Virus record (IMG/VR): IMGVR_UViG_3300027996_003878
Source of the DNA: a virus
Taxonomy: Duplodnaviria; Caudoviricetes
Length of the DNA stretch: 64,000 nucleotides
Direction: 5' to 3' (one strand)
The translations under genes were made by a program, and so were the position numbers. Under the pieces are notes generated by a model. That model was not told the origin of the DNA and did not search any database. It was given only the letters and a program-made list of their open reading frames with translations. Positions 19,252 to 63,892 of this stretch are shown here, piece by piece. Positions within the stretch are counted from its first letter, which is position 1. Each line of letters opens with the position of its first letter.

Positions 19252-19662
19252 TTAATTGGTAAGATAATTTACCACAAGACTATGAATCGAGCTATCTACA
19301 TTTGACTTCCAGCTATCATCATTATTTTTTATTGACTCTCTAATTGCCGTGGCGGAGATAAAACCAATATCCGCCGGAGGCTTATGCTCAATCGTGCCGT
19401 AGCCTACGCCTCTCCCCCAATTGACGCTTTCTATGTCGGGGATGACCATTACCTCCACATCTTGATCTTTATAAACTTCTTTGATCATTTTCACAGTTTG
19501 ATCTGTGGTGAATGGGTTTTTCTCATCAGGAGGAATGTCTCGAACACAGATCAAAACAGGGGTTCCCTCATCAAGCTTTTGACTAATAAGCCACTTGTGG
19601 CCGTTATGCATCGGCTGCCATCTACCTATAAACATAGCTCTTTTCATATTAACCCTCATCAC
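19252..19662 (-). CDS. HxGH-class nucleotidyltransferase (cytidylyltransferase-like)
   Basis: FIGRWQPMHNGH and ISATAIR motifs. Confidence 0.85.
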   Translation of the reverse strand: MMRVNMKRAMFIGRWQPMHNGHKWLISQKLDEGTPVLICVRDIPPDEKNPFTTDQTVKMIKEVYKDQDVEVMVIPDIESVNWGRGVGYGTIEHKPPADIGFISATAIRESIKNNDDSWKSNVDSSIHSLVVNYLTN

Positions 19663-20008
19663 CTAATAATTGACTTTCAACTTGAGACCAGCTTTCAAAT
19701 CTCAAAGCATGATCATCAATATAATAACTAGCAGCTATCTTCGTATTTGTAACATCATCAAAATAAGAAGAAAGATTATATTTTTCCAACCAGGGAACAA
19801 TATACTTAACTGGCCTGCTTGACATAACGACCAAGCGGTAACCTTTACTCTTTAATTTTTTTAAAGAAGCCTCTACCCCCTCCATTGGAGGATCATAAGC
19901 ATTATCTAAACCTTGAAAGCCCCTGGAATATCGATGAATTACTCCATCAAAATCAATTGCAAGGGTTTTTCTTTTTTGCTCTAGTGGTATCTCTTTAATC
20001 TCAGACAT
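19649..20008 (-). CDS. HAD-family phosphatase
   Basis: LAIDFDGVIH, SSR, K..ASYYIDDHA. Confidence 0.85.
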   Translation of the reverse strand: MSEIKEIPLEQKRKTLAIDFDGVIHRYSRGFQGLDNAYDPPMEGVEASLKKLKSKGYRLVVMSSRPVKYIVPWLEKYNLSSYFDDVTNTKIAASYYIDDHALRFESWSQVESQLLGDEG

Positions 20009-20059
20009 AACAAATAACCAATGTCTAAAAACACATAAGAAAATTAATGTATCGACAAA

Positions 20060-20410
20060 TTAAAAATTTATAACCTCAATACCATCTTCGGTTGTATAAT
20101 AAATTTTATTAACTTTTTTTGTTTTTATTGCACTCATGCAGCGCGCACAAGGCCTGGCAAGGCCGTAAGATCCATCCCTCTTAACCCTAGCGACGTAAAG
20201 AGTACATCCAAAACCACACTTTCTTAGCACCCTTGTCTCTGCATGAATATACGGAGTAACGACTCGATTTGAAGTATTTCGTGATGTTACAATAACACCA
20301 TCTGCCCGAACAGCAGCCGCCCCCAAATAAAAATGACGACGACGATCATTATTAAATTTAGCAGCGCTCGCCGCCAAATCAATCATTCTTTTAATTTTCA
20401 AAGACATCAA
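20060..20410 (-). CDS. Zn-dependent cytidine/deoxycytidylate deaminase-like protein
   Basis: HAE and ARPCARC motifs. Confidence 0.85.
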   Translation of the reverse strand: MMSLKIKRMIDLAASAAKFNNDRRRHFYLGAAAVRADGVIVTSRNTSNRVVTPYIHAETRVLRKCGFGCTLYVARVKRDGSYGLARPCARCMSAIKTKKVNKIYYTTEDGIEVINF

Positions 20411-20694
20411 TTACGGCTAATCGAACTATCAATACTTCCGTCATCCTGTGCAACTTTTAAGAGCACCAAATATCCTATTAAATCCATAACCGTATCTTCA
20501 TCTAAGTCATTTCCATGACCGTTAGAAATTCTGGACAATTTATCATCAATGCGGATTTTTATTTGCTCAACAGAATCCGCTCTTGAAAAAACTCTGATTG
20601 GAGAAATTGCCGAATCTCCATATTTACGATTTTTTGAAATTAATAAATCTTTAACTTGATCTACTACAGATAATATTTTATCTTCTGTACTCAT
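20407..20694 (-). CDS. DUF1599 / nucleotide-modification-associated domain protein
   Basis: KNRKYGDSA..IRIDDKLSRI..EDTVMDLIGYLVL. Confidence 0.75.
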   Translation of the reverse strand: MSTEDKILSVVDQVKDLLISKNRKYGDSAISPIRVFSRADSVEQIKIRIDDKLSRISNGHGNDLDEDTVMDLIGYLVLLKVAQDDGSIDSSISRN

Positions 20695-20700
20695 TAATAA

Positions 20701-21576: not shown

Positions 21577-21646
21577 AGGGATAATCTAACCACCCTGGTC
21601 GTAATTGCAATAGTAAAAAATCTATTAAATTAAAAAGTAAATACAG

Positions 21647-21994: not shown

Positions 21995-22046
21995 ACTTGT
22001 GAATATAACACTATTGATTCAATCAATAAAACAACATTGTTTTGAA

Positions 22047-22457: not shown

Positions 22458-22545
22458 TTATATTTTTTAAATATTTTTATAATTATTAATAATAATTTAT
22501 TATAATTGTGTAAGATAATAAATTATTATTTATTTAGGAGTAAAA

Positions 22546-24530: not shown

Positions 24531-24575
24531 AATAATTACCTGAGATCTAAAAACACCAATTTAAAATAAATTGAA

Positions 24576-37418: not shown

Positions 37419-38156
37419 ATGGTGGACTCTAAATCTAGAAGCTTTTTAAAAGCAATAACGTGGAGAATTTTTGCGGTCATTCTTTTAATGTTAGTTTCGT
37501 TTGCTTTAACTCGCAGCATTAAAACGGTAACCTATATCACTTTACTTTATCATTCAATTCAAATATTTATGTTTTACTTACACGAACAACTTTGGAATTA
37601 TATAAAATGGGGCAAAACAAGAGGCTTGTTTGTTCAAATGACTGGCTTGAGCGGAGCTGGCAAGACTACTTTAGCTCAAGCGCTTGCGGAAAAATTAAGA
37701 AAGCAAGGCTACAAAATAGAAATAATTGACGGCGATGAGTATCGTGAGGGGATTTGTAAGGACCTTGGTTTTTCAAAGCAAGATCGTTGCACAAATATAC
37801 GACGTCTAGGTTTTGTTGGTAAGGTTTTAGCAAGAAATAATGTAATCGCAATTATGTCTGCAATTAATCCTTATGATGAAGTTAGAAATGAGCTAACTTC
37901 TATGGGAGAATTTGTAAGAACCGTGCATGTTAAATGTGACATTGAAACGCTAAAAAAGCGTGATACAAAAGGGCTTTATGCAAGGGCTCTACTGCCTGAT
38001 GGAGATCCCAATAAGGTCCACAATTTTACAGGCATATCTGATCCATTTGAAGAGCCTACTAGCGCAGATCTCACAATTGAGACCAACAAAGAAGAAATGG
38101 AAGCTTCTTTGAAGAAGCTTCATGAATTTGTTCTAAGAGAAGCGGGCTCTAAATAA
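37419..38156 (+). CDS. cysC: DUF2061 membrane domain fused to adenylyl-sulfate kinase
   Basis: SRSFLKAITWRI...HEQLW (DUF2061), then MTGLSGAGKTT, IDGD, NIRRLG, FTGISDPFEEP. Confidence 0.9.
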   Translation: MVDSKSRSFLKAITWRIFAVILLMLVSFALTRSIKTVTYITLLYHSIQIFMFYLHEQLWNYIKWGKTRGLFVQMTGLSGAGKTTLAQALAEKLRKQGYKIEIIDGDEYREGICKDLGFSKQDRCTNIRRLGFVGKVLARNNVIAIMSAINPYDEVRNELTSMGEFVRTVHVKCDIETLKKRDTKGLYARALLPDGDPNKVHNFTGISDPFEEPTSADLTIETNKEEMEASLKKLHEFVLREAGSK

Positions 38157-38158: not shown

Positions 38159-39349
38159 TTAATTAACGTTATTTATATTATTTTTACTTGGAACATCATT
38201 GATTGTCTGATGTCTGCCTGGGCCTACAGAAACCAAGCAGACGTCAATATTTAATTCTTCTGAGATATATTTGATAAATAATTTTGCATTTTTTGGAAGA
38301 TCGTTAAAGCTTTTCACATTTGTAATGTCTTCCTTCCAACCAGGAAACGTAGTAAAGCTATTATCTCCAATAACTTTTGGTAAATTATCTAAGCAAGGAT
38401 ATTTATCATTATTATAATCGGTCGCCACTTTGATTTTATCAAAGCCAGACAAAACATCTAATTTTGTTATGGCTAGCTTTGTAATTCCATTAACCTCAAC
38501 CGCATATCTCATTAAAGGCATATCCAGCCATCCCACTTTGCGAGGTCGGCCTGTAACAGAGCCAAACTCATGACCAACGGTTTGTAGGTGCGATGCAAGC
38601 TCTCCTTTTATTTCGGATGGGAACGGACCCTCGCCTACTCTTGTCACATAGGCCTTTGTTATTCCGATAACCTCGTCTATTAAGGTTGGCCCAACACCAG
38701 CTCCAGTACAGGCCCCGCCAGCGGTAGCGTTAGAGGAAGTTACAAAAGGGTAAGTTCCAAGGTCAACGTCTAGCAAGGTGCCTTGAGCGCCCTCAAACAT
38801 CACCTTTTTATTTTCTTTTATATTGTTATTTATAATTCTTGGAATATCAGCTTTTGAAAATCTTTTCAAATTATCAATAACTTCTTGTTTGAAATTATAA
38901 TTATTATTTTTAATAATATCTAGTACACGAATTCCATTTCGACTTATTTTATCTTCGTAGGTAGGTCCAATGCCTTTTTTCGTAGTTCCAATTTTAGAAT
39001 TTTTATTTATGTCACTTTCAATATGCTTTGGAAGAATGACGTGAGCGCGATCTGACAACATCAACCTACCCTCAAGCGTTAAGCCTAACCTTTCAAGGCC
39101 CTTCACCTCTTCGTAAAAGACGTTAGGGTCAATGACCATTCCATGACCCAAAATGCAAGTAGTATGAGGATGAAGTATGCCAGACGGTATTAATCGCAAG
39201 ATAGTCTTTTCACCATCCACATTTAATGTATGACCTGCATTAGGGCCTCCGGCGTATCGAACTACAATGTCGTAATCCTTTGCATAAAAATCAACGATTT
39301 TGCCCTTACCTTCGTCACCAAAAGCACAACCTACAAAAACAGTATTCAT
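38159..39349 (-). CDS. purA: Adenylosuccinate synthetase (canonical PurA)
   Basis: FGDEGKGKIVD, GGPNAGHT, IGTTKKGIGP, EGAQGTLLD, VTGRPRKVGWLD, TKLDVL. Confidence 0.96.
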   Translation of the reverse strand: MNTVFVGCAFGDEGKGKIVDFYAKDYDIVVRYAGGPNAGHTLNVDGEKTILRLIPSGILHPHTTCILGHGMVIDPNVFYEEVKGLERLGLTLEGRLMLSDRAHVILPKHIESDINKNSKIGTTKKGIGPTYEDKISRNGIRVLDIIKNNNYNFKQEVIDNLKRFSKADIPRIINNNIKENKKVMFEGAQGTLLDVDLGTYPFVTSSNATAGGACTGAGVGPTLIDEVIGITKAYVTRVGEGPFPSEIKGELASHLQTVGHEFGSVTGRPRKVGWLDMPLMRYAVEVNGITKLAITKLDVLSGFDKIKVATDYNNDKYPCLDNLPKVIGDNSFTTFPGWKEDITNVKSFNDLPKNAKLFIKYISEELNIDVCLVSVGPGRHQTINDVPSKNNINNVN

Positions 39350-49000: not shown

Positions 49001-49672
49001 TTGAAAAATAATGTTTTAATATTTGGACTAAGCGATTCGAGTTCATTAGCGCATTTTTACTTTAATAACGATTCTGATTATAATGTAATTGGCTTTACGG
49101 TATCAGGCGAGTACCTTCCTGAAGACGGCTTGTTTGAAGGAAAGCCCGTATATGATTGGGATAATATAAATAAGCATGAAGAGCTAAATCCTAATAGTAC
49201 AAAATTATTTGCTCCACTTTATCACAACGGTATGAACTCTTTTAGAGAGCTTATTTATAATAAAGGAAAAGAGCAAGGTTATTCTTTTGCTTCGTATATT
49301 AGCTCAAAGGCAACTGTCTGGCAACCTAATCTAATTGGTGAAAACTGTTTCATCTTAGAGGATAACACAATTCAGCCTTATACTAGGATTGGTAATAACT
49401 GCGTTTTATGGAGCGGCAATCATATAGGTCATCATAGTGAAGTTAAAGATCACAATTATTTTACATCTCATGTTGTTCTATCAGGTCATTGTGTTGTTGA
49501 GCCTTATTGTTTTTTAGGCGTTAACTCAACAATTCGTAATGGCATAACAATTGCCAAAGGATCACTAATTGCAATGGGCGCAGCTGTGACAAAAAGCACC
49601 GAGCCTTGGGGTGTTTATAAAGGAACTCCGGCAAAAAAGGGCAAAGTTCTTAGCAAAGATTTAAAGTTTTAA
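49001..49672 (+). CDS. NeuD/PglD-family sugar acetyltransferase (hexapeptide repeats)
   Basis: TTG start; IGENCFI..IGNNCVLWSGNHIGHH..IAKGSLIAMGAAVTK..GTPAK. Confidence 0.9.
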   Translation: MKNNVLIFGLSDSSSLAHFYFNNDSDYNVIGFTVSGEYLPEDGLFEGKPVYDWDNINKHEELNPNSTKLFAPLYHNGMNSFRELIYNKGKEQGYSFASYISSKATVWQPNLIGENCFILEDNTIQPYTRIGNNCVLWSGNHIGHHSEVKDHNYFTSHVVLSGHCVVEPYCFLGVNSTIRNGITIAKGSLIAMGAAVTKSTEPWGVYKGTPAKKGKVLSKDLKF

Positions 49673-50601
49673 TGCAAAAGTGGCAAAAAAAAGGATTAAT
49701 ATATTGCACGGATGGGAGTGCTTTATGGAGCAGAAGTCACGCGCAGGTTCCTGTCGTTTTGGATATGCCAAGCTGTTGGCGAATTTATTATGCGACAAGA
49801 AATGAGGCAGGGCAAAGTAGTATTTCTTTTATTGATGTAACGAAGGGGCGTCCAGAGAATATATTATATTGTCACTCAAAGCCTGTTTTTGAGTCAGGCA
49901 AAATCGGCGCTTTTGATGACTGTGGCGTCATGCCGTCATCTTTCATACAAAAAGATGATAAAATATTTATGTACTATATAGGCTGGTCGGTTAGGAGTAC
50001 TATTCCATATCACAATTCAATTGGACTGGCCGTTAGCTCTGAAGGTAATAGTTTCAAGCGAGTTTTTGAGGGTCCCATAGTTGCTCCAAACCATTTGGAG
50101 CCTTACTTCACCGGCACATCTTGGGTTATGAATGATGAGGGTGTGTTTAGAATGTGGTACTTGTCTTGTACCAGGTGGGACTGCACAGATAGTGGTAAAT
50201 ATGAGCCAGCTTATCATATAAAATATGCAGAGTCTAAGGATGGTATAACTTGGACTAGAGAGGGGGCAGTGGCTATTGATTATAAAGAAAATGAAATGGC
50301 AATTGCGAATGCTTGTGTAATTAAGGAATTAAGTCTATACAAAATGTGGTATTGTTATAGAGGAGGGGCGGATTACCGAACTAACCCCAATACAAGTTAT
50401 AAAATTGGCTATGCAGAATCTGTAAATGCAAAAGAGTGGTTGAGAAAAGATGAAGAGGTTGATCTGTCTACCTCACACGACGGCTGGGACTCAACGATGT
50501 TAGCTTATCCTAATGTCATAAAGCATGATGGTAAACTTTACTTATTTTACAATGGTAATGGATTTGGAAAATCCGGCTTTGGGTACGCTATTTTAAATTA
50601 A
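49672..50601 (+). CDS. Five-bladed beta-propeller glycoside hydrolase-like protein (GH43/32/130-like)
   Basis: Repeated P.V...MYY/MWY blades; FDDCGVMP; YPNV..LFYNGNGFG. Confidence 0.75.
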   Translation: MQKWQKKGLIYCTDGSALWSRSHAQVPVVLDMPSCWRIYYATRNEAGQSSISFIDVTKGRPENILYCHSKPVFESGKIGAFDDCGVMPSSFIQKDDKIFMYYIGWSVRSTIPYHNSIGLAVSSEGNSFKRVFEGPIVAPNHLEPYFTGTSWVMNDEGVFRMWYLSCTRWDCTDSGKYEPAYHIKYAESKDGITWTREGAVAIDYKENEMAIANACVIKELSLYKMWYCYRGGADYRTNPNTSYKIGYAESVNAKEWLRKDEEVDLSTSHDGWDSTMLAYPNVIKHDGKLYLFYNGNGFGKSGFGYAILN

Positions 50602-50675
50602 ATTAATGAGCAAAAAAATTAAACACGCTAATAGTTTAAAAATTAGAACGAGTAATAGAACGTAGGGGTTTTCCT

Positions 50676-51458
50676 GTGAGTAACGAAAAACAGGCGTTTA
50701 ACAGAGATGGTTTTTTGCTTAAAAAAAATTTTTTAAGCAAAACTAATGTAAAAACAATTTTAAAATCTGCTAAGTCAGTTTTCAAACCGCACCTATCGCC
50801 AGAATTAACATTTAAAGACGGCATGGTTAGGCTATTTAACGAAGATTTAAATGCCTTTATTAACTGTGGTAAAATTTGCCAACATACCGTTGATCTTCAC
50901 AAGCTATGCGTTAGCGATAAGATGATGTCGCAAATTAAAAAACTAGGAATTGAAAGTCCTGTCATATGCACAAGGCCTGTGTTGTTTTTCAATTCAAGAT
51001 CCCTAGCAAAGTCAGAAGTGTATTACAAAACGCCTCCTCATCAAGATTGGCGCAGCATGCAAGGGTCACTAAATGCCATTGTAGTGTGGGTGCCATTAGT
51101 CGATATAAACATAGACTTAGGCGCTTTAGAAGTTATACCTGGAAGTCATAAGTGGGGGTTAGTGGCGGGTGATCTCGAAAACGGGTTTGGAACTTGTAAA
51201 GATGTATCCGACGATCAATTTACTAGTATTAAAGTAGAGGCGGGCGATGTGTTGTTTTTTTCAGCATTCTTGGTGCATCGATCTGGAAACAACGTTACAG
51301 AGCGTATAAGGTGGTCATGTCACTTTAGATATAATGATTTAAATGAAGCAACATTTAAAGATAGAAAATACCCTTGTCCATATAAATATGGCCCACAACC
51401 AGAGCTTATAACGCCTAACTTTCCAAACAAAGAATTACTATTGGAGCAATTTAAATGA
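50676..51458 (+). CDS. PhyH-family Fe(II)/2OG dioxygenase
   Basis: TPPHQDW (HxD), GALEVIPGSH, LVHRSG.N...R. Confidence 0.88.
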   Translation: MSNEKQAFNRDGFLLKKNFLSKTNVKTILKSAKSVFKPHLSPELTFKDGMVRLFNEDLNAFINCGKICQHTVDLHKLCVSDKMMSQIKKLGIESPVICTRPVLFFNSRSLAKSEVYYKTPPHQDWRSMQGSLNAIVVWVPLVDINIDLGALEVIPGSHKWGLVAGDLENGFGTCKDVSDDQFTSIKVEAGDVLFFSAFLVHRSGNNVTERIRWSCHFRYNDLNEATFKDRKYPCPYKYGPQPELITPNFPNKELLLEQFK

Positions 51459-52162
51459 GCAGAGATACAGTCAAAAGAAATGTCAGAGGAATAAATCTAA
51501 CACTATTGGCAAGCACAGGTCCTCTAATTAAATTCTCTAAAATGGACAAAGAAATAGAAGTCTTAGATTTTATAGATCAAATAAAGGCAGGAGAGGTTCT
51601 TTATGACTTAGGCTCTTGTGATGGTAGATTTGCTGTCTATGCAGCTAGTAAAAAAATATTATGTTATGCCTTTGAGCCTGAGCAAAAGAATTATGGTGTA
51701 CTTGTAAAAAACTTACAGCTAAATAAAGTTGGAAGCCATTTAAAGCCATTTCAATTAGCTGTAGGAGAGTACGATCATGAATCTCAAATTATTATTGGCG
51801 GAGCTGGCGCAGCTGGGGGTCACCAAAGAATAGTGGCAGATGCAGAAGGAGGTCGGGACGATTTAAAGATAAAGGGACAAAAGGACAAAATAAAAGTTGT
51901 CTCTTTAGATAGCGCTATAAAGAAACACAATCTAAAGAAGCCAGATTATCTTAAAATAGATATAGACGGCTCTGAGCTTTCATTTATCAAAGGGGCTGAC
52001 AGTACGTTTGCCGACAAACAGCTTAAAAAAATAATTTTCGAACTTAATCCGAATGATTCGAGCTATAATACAATTATTAAGTTTTTAAATAAGCATGGAT
52101 TTATTGAAAGCTCTAGATACAAAGTGAATCAATGGTTATTTAATATAATCTTTTCAAGATAA
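51455..52162 (+). CDS. FkbM-family methyltransferase
   Basis: YDLGSCDG, YAFEP, LKIDIDGSE. Confidence 0.85.
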   Translation: MSRDTVKRNVRGINLTLLASTGPLIKFSKMDKEIEVLDFIDQIKAGEVLYDLGSCDGRFAVYAASKKILCYAFEPEQKNYGVLVKNLQLNKVGSHLKPFQLAVGEYDHESQIIIGGAGAAGGHQRIVADAEGGRDDLKIKGQKDKIKVVSLDSAIKKHNLKKPDYLKIDIDGSELSFIKGADSTFADKQLKKIIFELNPNDSSYNTIIKFLNKHGFIESSRYKVNQWLFNIIFSR

Positions 52163-52834
52163 AGTATATTCATGCAAATAACTTTGAATTGATTCCTTCT
52201 TACAGTGCATAAGAATATCAATTATTGATAAGGATTGATTCTCATAATCAATCTTTTTCATTTGTATAAAATTTAACTTTATACCTTGCCTTTCAAAGAT
52301 ATCATAGTCATAAAGATCCCTTCCACCCGTGGGGTTTATATAATGACTGGCAGATGAATCTTTACATATTTTTAATATGCGTTGCTGACCTCGAAGGTCA
52401 CTTGTATTGTAATCCTGAGAGCTGTCTATAAGATTAGTATTTATTTCAAGATATTTACATATATTACCAATACCCTTTTTACAAATTTCAGAAAGATAGG
52501 AAGTATTAGTTTCTAGTGCGTCTTTAACGAGGGCATTAACCGCTTCAAAATTTATTGCAGATCCATAGGCGTGACGTAATGTTTTCAATAATTTATTACG
52601 CCACTTTTCATCAGCAACAATTTTTACTTCATTTATCTTTTGAAACTGACTGGATTTGCTGGTTGAGGCTCCAAAGTATATGATGCCCGATTTAGTCATA
52701 ATTCTATTTCTATGAATCCAACCTCTTTTTATATAATTTACATTATCTAAGAATATAAATTGATCAACGGCATGAATAAGCTGAAAATACCCTAAATAAG
52801 GAAAAAAGTAAGGCTGCATAATAGCTGTTTTCAT
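52154..52834 (-). CDS. WbqC-family protein
   Basis: IMQPYFFPYLGYFQLI..D.F.FLDNV..WIHRNRI; YINPTGG; LSIIDILM. Confidence 0.92.
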   Translation of the reverse strand: MKTAIMQPYFFPYLGYFQLIHAVDQFIFLDNVNYIKRGWIHRNRIMTKSGIIYFGASTSKSSQFQKINEVKIVADEKWRNKLLKTLRHAYGSAINFEAVNALVKDALETNTSYLSEICKKGIGNICKYLEINTNLIDSSQDYNTSDLRGQQRILKICKDSSASHYINPTGGRDLYDYDIFERQGIKLNFIQMKKIDYENQSLSIIDILMHCKKESIQSYLHEYTLS

Positions 52835-53868
52835 ATCATCTCTGAGTATGTGTTAATCGCATCAATAATACCGTTGACCTCATTTTCTTTCAATGAGCTA
52901 TATAGTGGGAAGTTAACTATTTTATCATACAACATCATTGAATTAGGTAGCGCTTTTAATGGTTTATAATATTTTTGGGCAATGATACTAAAAGATTTAA
53001 AAGAGTTATGATCTGTTTTGTCTAAAAATATAATCGGTAAGTTTCCATAAACTACCTCGGACGTGTAACCTAAAGGGCGAGCTTTATTTTTATCTTTTAT
53101 GCCGTCAAGTATTACATTTTGAATCTCTATATGTTTATCTAAATCATAATTATCTATGTGCTGAATAATAAATGCAGCTGAAATATCAGACATTTTAAAA
53201 TTTGAAGATAATTTATCATGCTCTCTGGCGTCATAAAATCCAAAATTGGCAATTGCGTTTAAGGCATTGTAATCTTCTTTGGGGGCGACAGCGAAACCGC
53301 CCTCACCAAAGCCAAGAAACTTGGTATGGTGGAGGCTGCCGAAAGAATAATTTCCAAAATTACATATATTAACGCCATTTATTGCGCTCATAGGGGAGCT
53401 TGCATTGTCTAGTATCAAAAACTTATTATTAGCTCTGCAAAAGTCCTCCCATGCTTTTAGGTCACTTGTAGCTCCAAAGAGATTGGTAATTATTACTCCA
53501 GATACATCTTTCAACAATAGCTCGTCCATCGGCAATGTAAATGTTCCTTGGTCGATATCACAAATAGAAACATCTGCTATTCCCTCCCCTCCTACTACCG
53601 CAGAGGGGAAAGTGAATGCGGGGGTAATCCATTTCGTTGCATTGTACTTCTTTCTACATAGAAACATAATTGCATGAAGCGCTGTTGTCCCATTATTAAA
53701 ACATACAACTTTTTTATCACAAGAAATATTTAAGAGCTTTGCAAGCTTCTTTTCCAGTGACCCCTTGACTGGACCATTATTTGTAAAATGATTTAATGCT
53801 TGAGATATTGATAATAAATCTTTTACTTTTTCATAGTCTATAGCTTTGCTTTCTATATAATTAATCAT
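52831..53868 (-). CDS. DegT/DnrJ/EryC1/StrS sugar aminotransferase
   Basis: FTNNGP, NNGTTAL, PAFTF, ILDNASS, SLHHTKFLGFGEGG, NFKMSDISAA. Confidence 0.9.
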   Translation of the reverse strand: MINYIESKAIDYEKVKDLLSISQALNHFTNNGPVKGSLEKKLAKLLNISCDKKVVCFNNGTTALHAIMFLCRKKYNATKWITPAFTFPSAVVGGEGIADVSICDIDQGTFTLPMDELLLKDVSGVIITNLFGATSDLKAWEDFCRANNKFLILDNASSPMSAINGVNICNFGNYSFGSLHHTKFLGFGEGGFAVAPKEDYNALNAIANFGFYDAREHDKLSSNFKMSDISAAFIIQHIDNYDLDKHIEIQNVILDGIKDKNKARPLGYTSEVVYGNLPIIFLDKTDHNSFKSFSIIAQKYYKPLKALPNSMMLYDKIVNFPLYSSLKENEVNGIIDAINTYSEMI

Positions 53869-53919
53869 TCTATGGTTATATATATCAAGTTGATAGGTAT
53901 AACGGCGTATAATTTAAGT

Positions 53920-54840
53920 ATGTCAAAAGATCGATTTATTAAAAGATTCCCGCTATTTAAAGGCTCCTCGTTAGAGGTTGGCCGTCCGACAATTGATTAT
54001 TTTATAAATCGCATAAAGAATAAAGATTATTTTTCTTTAGTTAGATTTCAAATTGAATATTGGAAAATGGTTCGTATCGCCCTACAGTCGATGGGTTACC
54101 CCGGTCTTTCGGCTCCTAAGATTTTAAAAAAGGACTCACAATTTGCTGAAAAGCTTGGCTCTGCAATGTTGCGTACATTTGATAATGTTCAGGAGGTAAA
54201 TGGAGATAGGCCTTGGGAATTTAGCGAGCGAGTATTTGCAGATCATATCAAAATGATAATATCAAATAAGCCAAATAATTTCTTCTTATCTGTTAGCGAC
54301 AAATCTGTTTATTTGAAAGATAATACGCCGGATGTAGGTAATAAATGGATGGCTGATCTTATAAAGGAACTGATACCTGATAGTGAGGTGCCTCTTTTAT
54401 CAACTATATGGCGAAGATGGGCTCAAAATGGTGAAATACAACGACTTATGGATCTTTGCAAAGACAGGGCGGTTGTAGTTGTAGGCCCTTACTATTATGA
54501 AAAGTTTGGTAAAAAATTAGGTTTCAACAATTGTCATTACGTAAGAATAGATCTTTTCAAAGCTTGCCTGCAAGTACATGAAACTTATATAAACATAAAA
54601 AAATTACATAATAAATTATTAAAAACAAATGATGATGTAATATATTTATTTGCAGGAGGATCAGCCGGAGCATGGTTGATAGATAAACTACACAACCAGA
54701 TTCCAAGAGCTTTTATGATTGAGTTTGGGAGAGCGCTTGATGTATACTTTTACAACGATCCAGTAAGGTGGAAAAGTGAAAAATGGGTTTTTGGCTATTG
54801 GATGGATAAGAGACCTCCTACTTGGCTGAAGGGTCGATAA
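53920..54840 (+). CDS. GT-D-fold-like putative glycosyltransferase (likely start 53920)
   Basis: FSLVRF motif, VVVVGP, YLFAGGSAG, IEFGRALD. Confidence 0.55.
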   Translation: MSKDRFIKRFPLFKGSSLEVGRPTIDYFINRIKNKDYFSLVRFQIEYWKMVRIALQSMGYPGLSAPKILKKDSQFAEKLGSAMLRTFDNVQEVNGDRPWEFSERVFADHIKMIISNKPNNFFLSVSDKSVYLKDNTPDVGNKWMADLIKELIPDSEVPLLSTIWRRWAQNGEIQRLMDLCKDRAVVVVGPYYYEKFGKKLGFNNCHYVRIDLFKACLQVHETYINIKKLHNKLLKTNDDVIYLFAGGSAGAWLIDKLHNQIPRAFMIEFGRALDVYFYNDPVRWKSEKWVFGYWMDKRPPTWLKGR

Positions 54841-55577
54841 TTTTACGTACTACTCAGCGTATTTGTTTAAAAATATTTTTATACATTTTCATCATTTTAT
54901 TTCTTTTAAAACATCACATGTCAAATAAAAATAAAAGTCCGTTACCTGAAATATATAAATTTTTATCAAAAACACTACCCAAGATCTCTGCACCTGTAAT
55001 ATTTGAGCTGGGCCTTCATAGAGGAGTAGATACAGAAAGAATTTTTAATTTATGTACGTCTCCTGAATACCATGGATTTGAACCTGATCCCAGAAACATC
55101 AGTGCATTCAAAAAGAAAGATATTTATACAAAAATTACATTCGTTGAGAAGGCAGTTGCGAACTATGACGGCAACGGCACTCTTAATCAGTCAAGCGGCA
55201 CCCCCGAGCATCATAATAGACAGAATAACGCCTCGTCATCCCTGCACAAGCCAAAAGAACATCTAAAGCGCTGGCCTTGGGTTAAGTTTGAAACGCAGGT
55301 TGAAGCTCCGGTCTGCAAGCTAGACACTTATTGTGACACAAATAGTATAAATAGTATAGATTTCATCTGGTGCGACATACAAGGTGGCGAGTATTACATG
55401 ATTCTTGGTGCGCAAAAGATTTTAAGAAAAACAAAATATATCTTTATGGAATATGAAGATACAGCGCTTTATGAGGGCCACAAAATGCTCCCACAAATAA
55501 TGAAAGCTTTACCAGGCAAATGGGAAGTCTTAAAAAAATACCCCGCAGATGTTCTTTTAAAAAATACAGAGATTTGA
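54822..55577 (+). CDS. FkbM-family methyltransferase
   Basis: IFELGLHRG, GFEPDPRN, SSSL, IDFIWCDIQGGE. Confidence 0.85.
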   Translation: MAEGSIILRTTQRICLKIFLYIFIILFLLKHHMSNKNKSPLPEIYKFLSKTLPKISAPVIFELGLHRGVDTERIFNLCTSPEYHGFEPDPRNISAFKKKDIYTKITFVEKAVANYDGNGTLNQSSGTPEHHNRQNNASSSLHKPKEHLKRWPWVKFETQVEAPVCKLDTYCDTNSINSIDFIWCDIQGGEYYMILGAQKILRKTKYIFMEYEDTALYEGHKMLPQIMKALPGKWEVLKKYPADVLLKNTEI

Positions 55578-56838: not shown

Positions 56839-57045
56839 CTATTGAGGTAATACAATTTCCTTCCAAAAGTATTCAAAAAAGGCATGAGCGAAGGTTTGAA
56901 CTATCTGAACAATTAAGGTCACCTTACCAGCTAGACTTATATCTCCTGTGACAATATGAACTGTGACAGACATCATAAGAAAAGACACAATCCTCCACGC
57001 AAGGATTTTGCCGAAAAAATAATATTTTTTATACTTATCACTCAA
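56839..57045 (-). CDS. Stand-alone DUF2061 membrane protein
   Basis: KILAWRIVS..TG...AG..HAFFEYFW. Confidence 0.7.
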   Translation of the reverse strand: MSDKYKKYYFFGKILAWRIVSFLMMSVTVHIVTGDISLAGKVTLIVQIVQTFAHAFFEYFWKEIVLPQ

Positions 57046-58960
57046 CGGTTACTGTTTTTGCAAGATTACGAGGGCGGTCTACATCAAGCCCTCTAAGAGA
57101 AGCGATATTGTAAGACAATAGCTGTAGCGGCAAAATGCTTAAAAACGGATTTAAATAGTCTTTTTTATTGGTCGCAATAGGCAATATTGAATCTATAGAA
57201 TTGGACTCAAGGCTGGGCTCCAAGTCAGTTAAAAGTATTACCTTACCGCCTCTAGCTCGAACCTCTTCAGTGTTACTTAAAATTTTATTGTAATTAGAGT
57301 CGTTTGGAGCAATTACAACTACAGGTACTTTTTTGTCAATCAAAGCAATTGGTCCGTGCTTCATCTCACCGGAGGAATAACCCTCTGCCCAAATATAGGA
57401 AATTTCCTTTAACTTTAGCGCCGCCTCCAAAGCAATCGGGTATTGATAGCCTTTACCAAGAAACATCATTGACTGTGAGTTGTGATATTTTTTTGCTATA
57501 CTTTTTATTTTTTTACTATCCTTGGAGGACAGATAATCCTTCATTAAGCCTGGAATAGCATTGAATTTTTTAAAAATTTTAATTCTAGCTTTTTTATCTA
57601 ACGCATTCCATTCCTGAGCTAAATACAGTGCTAATAAGAAAAGAACACCTAGCTGTGATGTGAAGCATTTTGTAGAAGCAACGCCAATTTCTGGCCCACA
57701 TTTTGTATAAAAAACGTAATCAGATAGTTCAGTAATCGAACTGTCCTTTACATTAGTTATTGAAAAGATTTTACATGATTTTTGTTTTGCTAACCTTACA
57801 CTTCGTAGTGTGTCGTATGTTTCTCCTGATTGAGATATTGCTACAACAAGATCAAATCTCGAACAGTGAAAATCACGACTGCTTAGCTCCGATGCAAATT
57901 GAACATCGACTGGCAAGTTTGCAAATTTCTCAATCCAATACTTTCCTATCAGGCCTGCGTGATAACTTGTACCACAGCCAATAATTAATACCCTTCTAAA
58001 ATCTAAAGGGTAAGGCATATAGATTTTATCTTTATTTATCTTACCGCTCTCAAAGTCAATACAATCTTTTATTGTATCTTCCAACGCTTTGGGCTGCTCA
58101 TGAATTTCTTTTAACATAAAGCTATTATAACCATTCTTACAAATACTTTTATCTTTTAAATATAGCACAGCCAAGTCTCGAACAATTGACCTGTTACAAT
58201 TTGTTATTTTGTACTTATTATTTGATATTTCTAGAATGTCATTATCTTGTAAGCTGAGAGCCTTAAATCTGCCTCTAGGCATAAGCTGCGACCATGGAGA
58301 AAAAGCAACCCGATCACTGCTTAAAAAATATTCTTCTCCTCCAAAAATAACGTCAACACCAACAGAAACATCCATACCACCAATAACAGCATTCTCTTTT
58401 ATTCCTAAAAATAATGGCAGCCCCCTTTTGGCCGCCCACACAGTGTTTGTGCGCTTGTCTAACAATAAAATGGCGTAGGAGCCCTTAATGAGCCTTAAGG
58501 CCTCCTCAAGGGCGCACTGGACGCCTATACCCTTGCGAGCGAAGCTTACGATAAGTCCAAGTATAATTTCTGTATCTGTATCTGATTTAATTTTTATTGA
58601 ATTTGAATCTAATATACTTTTTAGTTTTTGATAATTCTCAACGACACCGTTGTGGACGATTGCAAAGTCATCCTTTAGATGAGGGTGAGCGTTTTTTAAA
58701 TTAGGCTTTCCATGAGTGGCCCACCTTGTATGTCCAATTCCAACACTTGCGTTCAGTATGTGGGCTTGTAAGTTTTTGATTGAGTTTATTTTATCTTTTA
58801 ACTTTTTAACCTTACCTACGGCTTTTATTGCCAAGAAGCAATCATTTGAAGAAACGGCAATTCCAGATGAGTCATAACCTCTATACTCTAATCGCGACAG
58901 CCCTTTATAGATTCTTTTTAGAGCGTTTTTATCGCCAATATAACCAAAAATACCACACAT
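57038..58960 (-). CDS. glmS: Glutamine-fructose-6-phosphate aminotransferase (start MCGIFG at 58960)
   Basis: Cys1 CGIFG, LEYRGYDSSG, GHTRWATHG, MLKEIHEQP, SQSGET, GEMKHGP, DVDRPRNLAKTVTVE. Confidence 0.97.
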   Translation of the reverse strand: MCGIFGYIGDKNALKRIYKGLSRLEYRGYDSSGIAVSSNDCFLAIKAVGKVKKLKDKINSIKNLQAHILNASVGIGHTRWATHGKPNLKNAHPHLKDDFAIVHNGVVENYQKLKSILDSNSIKIKSDTDTEIILGLIVSFARKGIGVQCALEEALRLIKGSYAILLLDKRTNTVWAAKRGLPLFLGIKENAVIGGMDVSVGVDVIFGGEEYFLSSDRVAFSPWSQLMPRGRFKALSLQDNDILEISNNKYKITNCNRSIVRDLAVLYLKDKSICKNGYNSFMLKEIHEQPKALEDTIKDCIDFESGKINKDKIYMPYPLDFRRVLIIGCGTSYHAGLIGKYWIEKFANLPVDVQFASELSSRDFHCSRFDLVVAISQSGETYDTLRSVRLAKQKSCKIFSITNVKDSSITELSDYVFYTKCGPEIGVASTKCFTSQLGVLFLLALYLAQEWNALDKKARIKIFKKFNAIPGLMKDYLSSKDSKKIKSIAKKYHNSQSMMFLGKGYQYPIALEAALKLKEISYIWAEGYSSGEMKHGPIALIDKKVPVVVIAPNDSNYNKILSNTEEVRARGGKVILLTDLEPSLESNSIDSILPIATNKKDYLNPFLSILPLQLLSYNIASLRGLDVDRPRNLAKTVTVE

Positions 58961-59044
58961 TAGAATTTTTAAAAATGCTGCACGGCGCAACTTGACACAC
59001 ATTAACTGTATGTTTGTGCCAGATCCTTAAGGATCTTTATGTTT

Positions 59045-60712: not shown

Positions 60713-60722
60713 ACAATACCTT

Positions 60723-61067: not shown

Positions 61068-61202
61068 CTATAAATATAATCAATACAAGAAAGCTAAAGT
61101 CTCCAAGGCGAAATCAAAAATGCGCGAACAAGCAAATCGTTAACATTGCAACTGCACTCTTTAAAACCTTTCTTAAAACGTATATAGCACCAAGGCTTCA
61201 TA

Positions 61203-61859: not shown

Positions 61860-61886
61860 TATTAGTTGTAATTATCGACTTTTAAA

Positions 61887-62060
61887 TTATCTAAACATTG
61901 CAGTTAAGTTGCACCCATCCATAACTGCAAGTCGATTGTTATCAGTAAACCACACTTCAAATTGATTGTTATAAATTTTTGTAACAACGCCAGAAGAGCG
62001 CTCAGGCAAAGAAAGAACAATGTCTCCTATGCGAAACTTTGATTTTTTATAATTCATCAT
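61887..62060 (-). CDS. Small SH3/KOW-like protein not in ORF track (57 aa)
   Basis: KFRIGDIV..GVVTKI..FEVWF. Confidence 0.55.
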   Translation of the reverse strand: MMNYKKSKFRIGDIVLSLPERSSGVVTKIYNNQFEVWFTDNNRLAVMDGCNLTAMFR

Positions 62061-62170
62061 TAGTTCGTTTTTTTTATTTAAACTTACTTAGTTTATTTTT
62101 TGCACACGTACATTGCTTTTATATTGCCATTAATATAATTTTTATTAAGTATTTCGATATATATTTTTTC

Positions 62171-62443
62171 ATGAAGCTTAAAGTCGGGGATAGAGTTAGA
62201 GTTCAATACAGCTTAGGAAACTCACTAGAAGAGCAAGATACAAGGGTTATTGAAGTGAAGGGCGCTTGGGTGTTCGTTCAGTGGCACTTCGGAGAATATG
62301 TAACGAAAGCCGGTGACGAATTGGGCTGGTGGTTTCCAATCGAATCAATTGTAAAAAATTACGACGCTCAAACACGCTCCGATCCTTATTCAAATGATGA
62401 GGAAGGAAGAACGCTTGGCCCTTCGGGCTTGGAATGGCTTTAG
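62171..62443 (+). CDS. Small SH3/KOW-like protein (likely start 62171)
   Basis: MKLKVGDRVRV..RVIEV..VFVQW. Confidence 0.6.
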   Translation: MKLKVGDRVRVQYSLGNSLEEQDTRVIEVKGAWVFVQWHFGEYVTKAGDELGWWFPIESIVKNYDAQTRSDPYSNDEEGRTLGPSGLEWL

Positions 62444-63176
62444 TAAATAGGAGGGATTGAATAGATTTTAGTCGTTTGATTGAATCTCTTATATCTTCAT
62501 TTAATGATGACGCACACTGATTACCTACACATACCCACCCTTCTCTTTCACGTCGGGCGAATAATTCCAACTTCTGACTTTCTGGGAACATTAATTCCAG
62601 CCGCTCCTGCAATCCTTCAGGTTTTGCAGAGTGTTTTAAATTAACATCAAATAAAACAGAACGCTGGGACTTATTCTTTAAGTTGGAATAAGGAGAGCCG
62701 CGCTTTCCAACCAGTACAATTTCATGCGTTTGACGAAATAATCTCCCCATATAAAAACTTAAGGATTGATTTAAGTCAAAGGTATCCAGTCCATCCAGCT
62801 CTTGTCGAACAATTTTAAATATATTTTTTAAATCAAAACCCGCATTTGAAGATGCTGTTCTAATTTTATCTCGAATATCTTTTTTTATTTCTTTGAATAT
62901 ATTTCCAGGCTTTTTTGTTTTTACCCAAATAAATGTTTGAGTTTGCTCGAAACCCCAGGACATCATTGTATCCAGCCCTACTTGCAATTTAGAGGAGGGT
63001 ACCCAAAGAGCCAACACAGCATCATCGGCTGCAATGGACTCAACATTTAAATTGGTTATGTCAAAGTCACTTAAGGTATTGTATTGAGCTGAAGCGCCTC
63101 TTTTTATCCGACTCATCTGCAATGTGTCTCCAAAAGACCAAGGGCAGTCAGCTACGATTAAATTAAATTTAGCCAC
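62247..63176 (-). CDS. MT-A70-family N6-adenine methyltransferase
   Basis: IVADCPW, GASAQYNTLS, LALWVP, FIWVKT, THEIVLVGKRG, HSAKPE, LELFARR. Confidence 0.88.
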   Translation of the reverse strand: MAKFNLIVADCPWSFGDTLQMSRIKRGASAQYNTLSDFDITNLNVESIAADDAVLALWVPSSKLQVGLDTMMSWGFEQTQTFIWVKTKKPGNIFKEIKKDIRDKIRTASSNAGFDLKNIFKIVRQELDGLDTFDLNQSLSFYMGRLFRQTHEIVLVGKRGSPYSNLKNKSQRSVLFDVNLKHSAKPEGLQERLELMFPESQKLELFARREREGWVCVGNQCASSLNEDIRDSIKRLKSIQSLLFTKAIPSPKGQAFFLPHHLNKDRSVFERRNFLQLIRLETTSPIRHRLSLHILRSATERTPKRPSLQ

Positions 63177-63187
63177 TTAAATACCTT

Positions 63188-63892
63188 TTACTTTTTATAT
63201 CTTTTTAGATATTTATTGTAAATATTCTTATTGGATTCGATTTGCTTTTTTATTTCAGATATTACTGTTGGGTTTGCTTTATCGGAATGCCAAGAAAGAC
63301 TGTTAACGTTTCCCTTTGTCATAGAAGCCCCTCCAACATAATGTTTTGAAGAGGTGAGCTTATGCCGATCATAATTTTTAAAAAATGAGCCAAAATGCTT
63401 TGAATCTTCAATATCTAAAAAATTACAAAGCTTTGTAATTTCTTTTTTTGGATTAATAAGTAAGTCCTCATAATAAATTAAAACCTTATCCCCATCGAAC
63501 TGATCATAGTTCGAAATGCATCTTATATACTCACCAGTCCATTTTTTTATTTTACTTAACGTTCCGGCTGCTTTGCTATGGCGCAGGATGGCTTCATGAT
63601 AATCTCTAATTAAAAACACCAATCTACATGTATCTTTGTTCCAATTATCATAATCAAGTTCGAAGTTATGACGTTTAATTAAAATCGCCTTTTTAGAAAT
63701 ATCCACTCCCAAGTCCACGCTAGAGCTTATTACTTGAGATTTTTGCAGATAACCTTCCCCTGCTCTTTTTACTGGATTATGGCACGTGGGTCTCTTTGAA
63801 ATAAACTCAACAATATAACGGACCCACGAGTTCCCCGATCTTGGAAACGAAAGCAATACATTAAACTTATTTCCTTCTTTGTTTTTTTTCAT
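63188..63892 (-). CDS. Sulfotransferase-domain protein
   Basis: 5'-PSB-like LSFPRSGNSWVR, 3'-PB-like LIRDYHEA, IYYEDL..P..EI.KLCNFL. Confidence 0.8.
   Translation of the reverse strand: MKKNKEGNKFNVLLSFPRSGNSWVRYIVEFISKRPTCHNPVKRAGEGYLQKSQVISSSVDLGVDISKKAILIKRHNFELDYDNWNKDTCRLVFLIRDYHEAILRHSKAAGTLSKIKKWTGEYIRCISNYDQFDGDKVLIYYEDLLINPKKEITKLCNFLDIEDSKHFGSFFKNYDRHKLTSSKHYVGGASMTKGNVNSLSWHSDKANPTVISEIKKQIESNKNIYNKYLKRYKK

Follow-up and report, generated by a model that had tools for sequence, protein, structure and literature searches.

A putative sulfate-activation module with a candidate mini ATP sulfurylase, scattered in a marine jumbo phage genome and compact in related phages

The window, i.e., the whole stretch of 64,000 nucleotides analysed here, comes from a marine jumbo phage. 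The original prediction had proposed that dispersed genes of this window form a cycle running from ATP through APS and PAPS to pAp and AMP; the gene positions that it gave are all correct, and its sole error of identity concerns “cysK”. The candidate parts of the sulfate-activation pathway are spaced 18-44 kb from each other, and the features discussed below are the following:

12745..13671, + strand: DHH/DHHA1-fold phosphoesterase (AF2 model, pLDDT 88.4; Foldseek)
19252..19662, − strand: HxGH (HIGH-motif) mini nucleotidyltransferase, 131-136 aa (PF01467, 29.3 bits)
19649..20008, − strand: capless HAD phosphatase, 119 aa (PF13419, 27.4 bits), overlapping and co-transcribed with the HxGH gene
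37419..38156, + strand: DUF2061-CysC fusion (PF09834, 41.8 bits; PF01583, 150.8 bits; TIGR00455, 171.9 bits)
38159..39349, − strand: PurA, adenylosuccinate synthetase (PF00709, 495.5 bits), convergent with cysC with a 2 bp gap
49001..55577, no single strand given: amino-sugar tailoring cluster (Pfam matches)
56839..57045, − strand: stand-alone DUF2061 membrane protein, 68 aa (PF09834, 32.8 bits; ORF list)
63188..63892, − strand: divergent sulfotransferase, 234 aa (Sulfotransfer_1, 24.5 bits for a cut-off of 22; Sulfotransfer_3, 26.8 bits for a cut-off of 27)

The product of 37419-38156, predicted to be an APS kinase fused to DUF2061, indeed matches PF09834, PF01583, and TIGR00455, with a score above the cut-off of 138.7 bits for the latter, an APS-kinase equivalog model. 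DUF2061 is N-terminal, with two predicted membrane helices at residues ~10-60, and CysC occupies residues ~66-240. The protein matches the Synechocystis APS kinase 5cb6 with 156 bits and ~50% identity and, judging from these matches, is a bona fide APS kinase, expected to convert APS into PAPS. The identical DUF2061-CysC fusion is found in loci L001-L004, L022-L024, L026, and L029, and the CysC/HxGH pair is flanked by stand-alone DUF2061 genes in L014, L027, and L030. A second DUF2061 gene does lie beside glmS in the window, where its start overlaps the stop codon of glmS (57038-~58960). As for the two metabolic genes also listed in the original prediction, purA is present (38159-39349, − strand, 495 bits) and is a recurrent neighbour of the module in a few arrangements, within 1-2 kb of it in L015/L027 and L028; there is no cysK in the window, the only PLP-fold gene (40860-42170, − strand) belonging to the ThrC, or threonine synthase, family, as its product scores 223 bits with TIGR00260 (cut-off 167) vs. 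22-40 bits with the CysK/CysM models.

The 63188-63892 product had been called a sulfotransferase, and this assignment holds for a divergent member: its Sulfotransfer_1 score is above the cut-off, it carries FPRSGNSW at the position of the 5'-PSB loop, and its PDB sequence matches, all of them weak, are to sulfotransferases in 25 cases out of 26. The gene is separated by 12 bp from an MT-A70 methyltransferase gene downstream of it, and no homologue turned up in 25 related phage records. This 234-aa protein is the presumed PAPS user in the window.

The protein encoded at 19252-19662 is confirmed as a HIGH-motif nucleotidyltransferase of 136 aa in its longest version, with GTG 19662, ATG 19659, and ATG 19647 as candidate starts and with GRWQPMHNGH and ISATAIR as motifs. 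Its AF2 model (pLDDT 96.3) is closest to archaeal NMNAT (VIA Z 14.2) and PPAT (14.0), followed by Sat (7-10.7), and as a whole it superposes on the catalytic domain of the Thermus ATP sulfurylase 1v47 over 128 residues (Z 10.7, rmsd 2.7). A profile search against solved proteins likewise puts archaeal NMNAT first (E 6e-18), Sat is missing among the best 60 profile matches of the family, and the window protein has no match to the ATP-sulfurylase family PF01747, while some family members are at or near its threshold of 24.3 bits (P0326, 26.0 bits; P0270, 23.8 bits). Archaeal or NadM-type NMNATs (1f9a, 1ej2, 2qjo; TIGR01527, NF002243) are thus the closest relatives by sequence and fold, sharing the motifs GRxQPxHxGH, NPFT, and SxTxxR. 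However, the NCBIfam scores are well below the family cut-offs (54 vs. 127; 40.6 vs. 181) and concern the N-terminal half only; conversely, ordinary archaeal NMNATs match the HxGH profile in their N-terminal half only. The match ceases where a 7-residue loop bearing an invariant Gly-Arg takes the place of ~32 residues of archaeal NMNAT (77-108 in 1f9a), and the HxGH family has further invariant residues not shared with NMNAT (Arg41, Asp76, and Tyr88). Across 80 diverse members, the catalytic residues G13, R14, P17, H19, G21, H22, S103, T105, and R108 are invariant or nearly so.

The HxGH family is large (>3,400 clusters), and the search for its co-occurrence and fusion with CysC and sulfotransferases in relatives was strongly positive, extending to bacteria and archaea: its members adjoin or are fused to APS kinase in phages, Chlamydiia, and DPANN archaea. 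Among the homologues retrieved, we found 118 CysC-HxGH and 16 HxGH-CysC fusions, as well as one each of HAD-HxGH (P0126), sulfotransferase-HxGH (P0184), and HxGH-DUF2061; kinase fusions account for 45 of the 145 representatives of HxGH clusters at 50% identity. Viral contigs recovered via CysC carry the HxGH gene in 17-18 cases out of 21, and those recovered via HxGH all carry CysC (10/10). The pair adjoins in either order, in seven or more distinct arrangements, and its members lie apart only in this window and in G025. Sulfotransferases take part in these arrangements: the L006 operon reads GT2, sulfotransferase, HxGH, CysC with overlapping ends, the L031 operon reads sulfotransferase, kinase-HxGH fusion, DUF2061 protein, G025 has HAD and HxGH followed by two Sulfotransfer_2 genes, and a Sulfotransfer_3 gene lies at most 2.5 kb from the CysC/HxGH pair in 11 of the 25 related phage records. 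The lack of a canonical sulfurylase (Sat/CysD) in these records (0/25, with PF01747 over cut-off in 0/25) speaks for a sulfurylase role of HxGH, although it proves little, as phages could use host APS.

As for cellular genomes, CysQ is followed in G407 by HxGH-CysC and a second CysC, with a convergent sulfotransferase, and no Sat or CysD match was found in the genome; in L034/L036, the order is CysQ, CysC, HxGH-CysC. We surveyed 401 genomes of one archaeal phylum, among which 14 carry HxGH. These being incomplete MAGs whose lineages are related, the p-values overstate independence: CysC is present in each of the 14 carriers (Fisher p = 3e-14), none has Sat vs. 17 of the 35 other CysC genomes (p = 7e-4), and 4 have any canonical sulfurylase vs. 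27 of these 35 (p = 0.002), leaving 10 carriers without any known one. HxGH and CysDN are not strictly alternative, as a CysD-like and CysN-like pair coexists with HxGH in G239, G261, and G263, directly adjoining the HxGH-CysC fusion in the latter; in Chlamydiae, G033 has both Sat and a fusion of HxGH with the kinase.

Since its relatives are almost always fused to or found beside an APS kinase, the HxGH protein probably represents a type of ATP sulfurylase not described so far, which would let the phage make PAPS itself. The earlier suggestion of a minimal ATP sulfurylase holds better than expected: it is supported by the linkage to CysC and by the many carriers that have no known sulfurylase, and weakened by NMNAT being the nearest relative, by the carriers with CysDN or Sat, and by the distances between the parts in this window, whose sulfotransferase is shared with no relative. 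Overall, we give a probability of roughly 0.55 to the following reading, in which a portable sulfate-activation module, compact in the related phages, is present in the window in dispersed form. Judging from the order of the genes, their fusions, and their phyletic distribution, the 136-aa protein would be a minimal HIGH-motif adenylyltransferase from the NMNAT/PPAT branch that uses sulfate as its acceptor (ATP + sulfate -> APS + PPi), i.e., an ATP sulfurylase of a third kind, distinct from Sat and CysDN; DUF2061-CysC, which, given its ~50% identity to 5cb6, should act on AMP bearing a sulfate-sized group, would then convert APS into PAPS for use by the sulfotransferase, and DUF2061 might, more tentatively, tether the kinase to the membrane. 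We found no description of such a mini ATP sulfurylase in the literature. The layout recalls PAPS synthases and other Sat-CysC or CysN-CysC fusions (human PAPSS1 1x6v, Aquifex 2gks, bacterial CysNC), where APS kinase is likewise fused or adjacent to the substrate-making enzyme in either order and which also feed sulfotransferases. The catalytic domain of Sat shares the HIGH-motif Rossmann-like fold of HxGH (Z 7.3-10.7 over ~130 residues), but the partner domain is ~390 aa in Sat-type fusions vs. 135 aa here, and HxGH has no PUA-like domain, does not match PF01747, and groups with NMNAT/PPAT by sequence. The GTP-coupled CysDN/NodPQ has the role proposed here for HxGH, the supply of APS to CysC, as with NodPQ in Nod-factor sulfation, with an unrelated fold class (PP-loop plus GTPase).

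Could the pair make another donor? HxGH might use a different small anion, or a phospho-compound, as the partner to which AMP or CMP is joined, with the CysC-type kinase phosphorylating the product on its 3' position, which we consider unlikely. There is a precedent for this logic in the O-methyl-phosphoramidate (MeOPN) pathway of Campylobacter jejuni, where the nucleotidyltransferase Cj1416 helps to make cytidine diphosphoramidate and Cj1415, a CysC homologue, then phosphorylates it, Cj1415-Cj1418 likewise combining a nucleotidyltransferase with a CysC-family 3'-kinase to obtain a PAPS-like donor with which the capsule is decorated (PMC11800397). That pathway, however, requires a glutamine kinase and an amidohydrolase, both absent from the phage module, where no other conserved acceptor-supplying gene is seen and only DUF2061, HAD, and sulfotransferases recur. 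Cj1416 is not known to be a HIGH-motif enzyme. CysQ or HAD could equally well clear a 3'-phospho-nucleotide by-product, and the presence of CysDN next to the G263 fusion poses less of a problem if HxGH does not make APS; on the other hand, the kinase is above the equivalog threshold and has ~50% identity with 5cb6, the neighbouring users are sulfotransferase-family proteins, and Sat is absent from all the carriers in the archaeal phylum surveyed.

Coexistence with CysDN (G263, G239, G261) and with Sat (G033) would also fit a nucleotide-binding HxGH that assists APS kinase in a non-catalytic or regulatory way, with APS coming from the host or CysDN, phages needing no APS synthesis of their own. 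The kinase-like allosteric domain of fungal sulfurylase is a regulatory precedent, and the structural matches include 3cr8 (Z 9.1), a hexameric APS kinase from Thiobacillus whose Sat-like domain we take to be inactive, with a scaffold role. We find such a partnership comparably unlikely, given the conservation of the catalytic signatures, the free-standing HxGH kept with HAD far from cysC here and in G025, its fusion to a sulfotransferase in P0184, and the 10 of 14 archaeal carriers without a known sulfurylase.

Whatever HxGH does, phage cysC might be an auxiliary gene of assimilatory sulfate reduction boosting host cysteine synthesis instead of supplying sulfotransferases. Surveys do class viral cysC with cysH as assimilatory, cysC being common in large aquatic phages and transcribed in situ, in lakes; they mention neither sulfotransferases nor a sulfurylase and do not describe the attached transferase, DUF2061, HAD, or the operons with sulfotransferases (PMC10914622; bioRxiv 10.1101/2021.01.05.425418). 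With no PAPS reductase family gene (PF01507) over cut-off in any of the 25 phage records, sulfotransferase genes within operons holding cysC, and a sulfotransferase in the window, we regard this role as highly unlikely. Least probable of all is an NMN adenylyltransferase or PPAT-like enzyme supplying NAD or CoA during infection, with cysC nearby through a shared nucleotide-metabolism neighbourhood: the top matches by NCBIfam, PDB sequence, and fold, the common NPFT motif, the existence of phage NMNATs (phrog_3462), and the nucleotide-related genes around the window gene (HAD, deaminase-like) speak for it, but it has against it the low, N-terminal scores and the deletion described above, 134 APS kinase fusions and one sulfotransferase fusion left unexplained, genomic partners (CysC, HAD, DUF2061, sulfotransferases) other than the NadV or Nudix of NMNAT, NadV not being found in four related phages and adjoining a different, NadM-Nudix-sized gene in G020, a separate ordinary NMNAT kept by archaeal carriers (as in G035, G261, and G267), and deaminase-like and DUF1599-like neighbours that are conserved in no relative.

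Returning to the sulfate-activation module, its conserved phosphatase partner is the HAD protein whose gene overlaps that of HxGH, not the DHH protein. The HAD gene had been overlooked in the original prediction. Its motifs are intact (DFDGV, SSRP, IDDH); it occurs in 6 of the 25 relatives, each time with HxGH or CysC as its neighbour, and G004 and G029 have it fused to CysC. We infer, with less confidence, that it is a pyrophosphatase or a pAp 3'-phosphatase, which would pull the unfavourable sulfurylase reaction by removing pyrophosphate or, alternatively, clear pAp. The DHH protein, for which pAp recycling had been suggested, does have a DHH/DHHA1 fold and is recognisable by fold alone: Pfam, NCBIfam, and PHROG searches gave no match, and its model matches DHH/DHHA1 proteins only, with the DHH-type PAP phosphatase 8a8k of Methanothermococcus on top (E 4e-5), then NrnA-like proteins, TM1595, and RecJ. 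This enzyme of M. thermolithotrophicus (MtPAPP), a DHH/DHHA1 protein that has no similarity in sequence to the classical DHH proteins, hydrolyses pAp, and its gene lies near sulfate-activation genes (PMC10322725). The TM-score of this best structural match is, however, just 0.38, with NrnA-like nanoRNases nearly equal, and none of the 25 related CysC/HxGH carriers has a homologue of the phage protein. It belongs to a conserved huge-phage family (413 clusters, none with a Pfam domain) and is outside the conserved module; a pAp phosphatase activity is possible from its modelled fold but unsupported.

The acceptor might be sought in the 49001-55577 amino-sugar cluster (hexapeptide acyltransferase, GH130-like protein, PhyH dioxygenase, two FkbM methyltransferases, WbqC, and DegT aminotransferase), a possible candidate pathway for sulfation none of whose genes was seen adjoining the module in relatives; DNA and virion protein are the other acceptors that the original prediction had suggested. 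If the phage does have its own sulfurylase, it would make PAPS without host APS and so sulfate a glycan or another surface acceptor.

The original prediction placed a dispersed ATP->APS->PAPS->pAp->AMP loop in the window, with a small HxGH protein as ATP sulfurylase, a DHH protein recycling pAp, and cysK and purA included. This interpretation is right in its core: the HxGH protein works with the APS kinase (CysC) in PAPS supply, as indicated by gene linkage and fusions, while the chemistry that we propose for it is read from genomic context. Neither the cysK assignment nor the placing of the DHH protein among the conserved partners held up. The window (G+C about 34%) also encodes a topoisomerase IA, an FtsK-like ATPase, two sigma factors, a MoxR/VWA pair, ClpP, GlmS, PurA and sugar-tailoring genes. 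Its 36-46 kb region had no megablast match in the phage collection and no cultured close relative was found; tblastn of its CysC against the same collection returned only 5 matches, all distant. The relevant features are as follows.

Features of the window
37419-38156, plus strand: DUF2061-APS kinase fusion (PF09834 and TIGR00455/PF01583)
56839-57045, minus strand: stand-alone DUF2061 of 68 aa, overlapping the end of glmS (PF09834)
19252-19662, minus strand: HIGH-motif nucleotidyltransferase of 136 aa, the HxGH protein (PMHNGH motif)
63188-63892, minus strand: divergent sulfotransferase (PF00685/PF13469 and FPRSGNSW)
12745-13671, plus strand: DHH/DHHA1-fold protein of 308 aa (predicted structure)
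40860-42170, minus strand: full-length threonine-synthase-family (ThrC) gene (TIGR00260, 223 bits)
43542-45311, minus strand: 589-aa protein with a weak N-terminal ART-PolyVal match and a C-terminal match to phrog_2579 (ParB C-terminal domain; E 1e-28)

Most of the predicted parts were recovered: the HxGH nucleotidyltransferase, the DUF2061-kinase fusion, the second DUF2061 beside glmS, and purA, which adjoins cysC. An intact 119-aa HAD phosphatase overlapping the HxGH gene had been overlooked. The supposed cysK is a misassignment, as the sole PLP-fold gene of the window belongs to the ThrC family; nor is it a cysteate synthase (55.6 bits vs a cut-off of 324.9). A ThrC-family gene is unusual cargo for a phage, and a single weak homologue was seen in the related loci (L026, E 3e-6).

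The kinase part of the fusion passes the equivalog threshold of TIGR00455 (171.9 bits vs a cut-off of 138.7), carries the Walker A motif GLSGAGKTT and the DGD motif IDGDEYR, and matches the Synechocystis APS kinase structure 5cb6 with 156 bits. Both DUF2061 domains exceed the PF09834 cut-off (41.8 and 32.8 bits vs 23.1). In relatives, this domain is fused to CysC, fused to HxGH or adjoins them, and we read it as a membrane tether; only passing mentions of it were found in the literature. The start of the 68-aa DUF2061 gene of the window overlaps the glmS stop (56839-59002, minus strand), so DUF2061 is here coupled to hexosamine supply and not to cysC.

The sulfotransferase is borne out as a divergent family member, with marginal but consistent scores (PF00685, 24.5 bits vs 22; PF13469, 26.8 vs 27). 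Its FPRSGNSW motif occupies the place of the 5'-phosphosulfate-binding loop, and an RDYHEA...S segment was seen on inspection of the sequence alone for a 3'-phosphate-binding motif and catalytic base. Used as a query, the protein had no match in 25 related records, and it is lineage-specific. Its gene ends 12 bp before a same-strand MT-A70-family methyltransferase gene (62247-63892, minus strand), with which it is probably co-transcribed. The amino-sugar cluster at 49-55.6 kb, whose glycan the original prediction named as a possible target, showed no tie to sulfation.

The first hint of a link between CysC and HxGH was PHROG 10255, whose N-terminal half matched the window kinase and whose C-terminal half matched the HxGH protein, suggesting fusions. 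Indeed, the HxGH gene (66-76% identical) is found in 17-18 of the 21 viral contigs retrieved via CysC, and CysC in all 10 contigs retrieved via HxGH. A domain map of 31 related loci revealed at least seven gene arrangements of what we call the module (CysC, HxGH, HAD and DUF2061, with or without sulfotransferases).

Gene arrangements in the related loci
DUF2061-CysC > HAD > HxGH
sulfotransferase > (0-2 genes) > HxGH > CysC
HxGH > CysC > DUF2061
CysC > DUF2061 > HxGH
DUF2061-CysC > HxGH
DUF2061 > CysC-HAD > HxGH
sulfotransferase > kinase-HxGH fusion > x-DUF2061

Among the mapped loci, CysC and HxGH lie apart only in the window (18 kb) and in the related genome G025 (52 kb); the HAD-HxGH pair is intact in both, directly followed in G025 by two Sulfotransfer_2 genes. 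At the other extreme, a 192 kb record (L006; CheckV 100% complete) has GT2 > sulfotransferase > HxGH > CysC, each stop overlapping the next start. The HxGH family comprises 3,430 clusters of near-length sequences, and typing of the longer homologues and 50%-identity representatives gave 118 CysC-HxGH and 16 HxGH-CysC fusions, as well as one each of HAD-HxGH, sulfotransferase-HxGH and HxGH-DUF2061. As fusion occurred in both orders, independent events are implied. The co-occurrence and fusion of HxGH with CysC and sulfotransferases expected from the original prediction are, thus, found in relatives. Several stand-alone HxGH proteins bear the JGI name “adenylylsulfate kinase”, apparently transferred from the annotation of such fusions.

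In another related locus (L031, 4988-15361), a sulfotransferase > kinase-HxGH > DUF2061 cassette sits between two very large fibre-like proteins with long Ser/Ala/Thr-rich repeats, which suggests that the flanking fibre itself may be the sulfation acceptor in that phage. We also considered whether HAD and HxGH form a nucleotide-modifying string with their deaminase-like and DUF1599-like neighbours, and rejected this reading: the latter two have no homologue near HxGH in the 31 related loci.

What, then, is the HxGH protein? Membership of the Sat family can be dismissed, with no PF01747 match at E<=0.01 for the window protein and no Sat among the best 60 matches of a profile built from 80 HxGH members. 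Sub-threshold PF01747 matches (11-13 bits) fall, in relatives, only on the HxGH gene itself. A weak bridge to Sat is given by a few members that touch this Pfam ATP-sulfurylase model (the distant P0326 with 26.0 bits vs a cut-off of 24.3, P0270 with 23.8, P0205 with 19.1), a PF01747 match being also precomputed for P0224. The PMHNGH sequence is the HxxH motif of a HIGH-type Rossmann-like catalytic domain; the protein is a single domain of 136 aa with no N-terminal PUA-like domain, vs about 390 aa for Sat. The 80-member profile matched archaeal NMNAT (E 6e-18), NadM and PPAT, and the AlphaFold model (pLDDT 96) aligned best with NMNAT 1f9a (Z 14.2) and PPAT (14.0), then with bacterial NaMNATs (about 11) and with the Thermus ATP sulfurylase 1v47_B (Z 10.7, 128 of 136 residues, rmsd 2.7). 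On these profile matches and Z-scores, the protein belongs to the HIGH nucleotidyltransferase superfamily as a minimal form, nearest to NMNAT; the catalytic domain of the sulfurylase is also clearly related in structure, though at a greater distance.

An NMN adenylyltransferase of the archaeal/NadM type is, nevertheless, improbable on score, length coverage and NAD-salvage context. The scores against TIGR01527 and NF002243 are far below cut-off (54.1 bits vs 127 and 40.6 vs 181.2) and only residues 7-78 match. About 32 residues of 1f9a (77-108), which we take to be the part holding nicotinamide, are missing in the profile alignment, and a loop of 7 residues, in which Gly83-Arg84 is invariant, takes their place; Arg41, Asp76, Tyr88 and Trp118 are further family-specific invariants. 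Ordinary archaeal NMNATs match the HxGH profile at positions 4-80 only, and occur alongside true members. A search for NadV in the related genomes G006, G007, G010 and G025 found none. It is present in G020, a phage of 395 kb bounded by direct terminal repeats, where it adjoins a different, 333-aa NMNAT-like gene of NadM-Nudix size (129740-132011); the two resemble a classical pair for NAD salvage and are distinct from the HxGH-family homologue at 372618-372974.

None of the 25 related phage records has PF01747 or PF01507 above cut-off, so these phages have CysC and sulfotransferases without Sat, CysD or CysH. Cellular relatives were found with one archaeal HxGH domain as query: Chlamydiia carry CysC-HxGH fusions, several DPANN archaea have CysQ > CysC > HxGH-CysC, and G407 has CysQ > HxGH-CysC > CysC with a convergent sulfotransferase. 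The DPANN tandem of a free CysC and HxGH-CysC after a CysQ-family gene (L034 7495-8930, L036 7468-8900, L041 6100-7589) recalls fungal ATP sulfurylase, and by analogy one kinase copy may be regulatory.

We surveyed 401 genomes of the archaeal phylum to which the genome G032 belongs. The family occurs in 14 of them, and its carriers differ from the rest in having CysC (14/14 vs 35/387 others; p = 3e-14), in lacking Sat (0/14 vs 17/35 other CysC genomes; p = 7e-4) and in less often having any canonical sulfurylase (4/14 vs 27/35; p = 0.002). These p-values are optimistic, since the MAGs surveyed come from related lineages. In 45 of the 401 genomes, 29 of them with no APS kinase, we saw a short CysD-like protein of about 270 aa, whose 180-243 bits stay below the TIGR02039 cut-off.

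One has to weigh against this the carriers in which a CysD-like and a CysN-like gene coexist with HxGH (3/14: G239, G261 and G263), which show that the complementarity of the family holds for Sat and does not extend to CysDN. G263 is the clearest case against a simple sulfurylase replacement: its CysD-like and CysN-like GTPase genes lie divergently, directly beside the HxGH-CysC fusion (L040 5896-9038). The cluster around this pair and fusion also includes ABC-2 genes for polysaccharide export. One Chlamydiae genome also has Sat besides the fusion. In view of these cases, the HxGH protein may instead have a regulatory or scaffolding role, or it may use an acceptor other than sulfate.

The HAD protein of the window (PF13419, 27.4 bits vs 23.8) has the motifs DFDGV, SSRP, a conserved Lys region and IDDH. 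HAD always adjoins or is fused with CysC or HxGH, and we regard it as the module's conserved phosphatase. It could act as a pyrophosphatase, which would give the pull needed by a GTP-independent sulfurylase, or, equally possibly, as a pAp 3'-phosphatase.

The DHH-fold protein has no Pfam, NCBIfam or PHROG match, nor has any of its listed homologues a Pfam domain; the predicted fold is, in turn, upheld by the model (pLDDT 88), a two-domain DHH/DHHA1 structure. Among the 50 Foldseek matches listed, DHH-superfamily structures dominate, the best (E 4e-5) being 8a8k, the DHH-type PAP phosphatase of Methanothermococcus (PMC10322725). D24, D42, H43, H44, D78, D80, D82 and D112 are invariant in what is a well-conserved huge-phage family (413 clusters, contigs up to 344 kb, about 56-82% identity among the matches listed). 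Hydrolysis of pAp would be chemically plausible, on a modelled fold that does not separate pAp from nanoRNA or from cyclic or linear dinucleotides as substrates. As a query, the protein had no match in the 25 module-carrying relatives, and we therefore do not count it in the system.

Given the coexistence with CysDN or Sat in some carriers, and as a regulatory role or another acceptor is possible, we put our confidence near one half in the following reading. The HxGH protein would be a third, GTP-independent class of sulfate adenylyltransferase (ATP + sulfate -> APS + PPi) of about 135 residues, which would have arisen when an NMNAT-like ancestor lost the segment that binds nicotinamide. With APS kinase, a capless HAD as pyrophosphatase or pAp phosphatase, and DUF2061 as membrane anchor, it would form a portable PAPS synthase for surface-glycan or protein sulfation in marine and freshwater phages, DPANN archaea and some Chlamydiia without classical sulfate-activation genes. 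The HxGH/CysC fusions parallel in architecture the known PAPS synthases (Sat-CysC, CysN-CysC), and the Campylobacter Cj1415/Cj1416 donor pathway is a parallel in logic. No published description of the HxGH transferase family was found, and searches for phages with APS kinase, sulfotransferase, cytidylyltransferase or ATP sulfurylase returned nothing relevant; the Sat-complementarity count and the CysDN counter-examples are new here. Two published studies class viral cysC as an assimilatory “auxiliary metabolic gene” that large aquatic phages are enriched in and that is transcribed in situ; they mention neither a sulfurylase nor sulfotransferases (PMC10914622; 10.1101/2021.01.05.425418).

In the window, a module that is an operon elsewhere remains recognisable though scattered over 44 kb. 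To our knowledge, ATP sulfurylase is the sole entry point of sulfate into biology, and textbooks know only two types, Sat and CysDN. If our reading is true, a very small third type would supply the “missing sulfurylase” of genomes with APS kinase and sulfotransferases but without Sat or CysDN, and would offer a compact enzyme for enzymatic PAPS production. The abundant and transcribed viral cysC would then be re-read as a sign of phage-directed sulfation instead of assimilatory sulfate reduction, which would point to glycan sulfation, on the virion or the host surface, as a trait of phages in the ocean.
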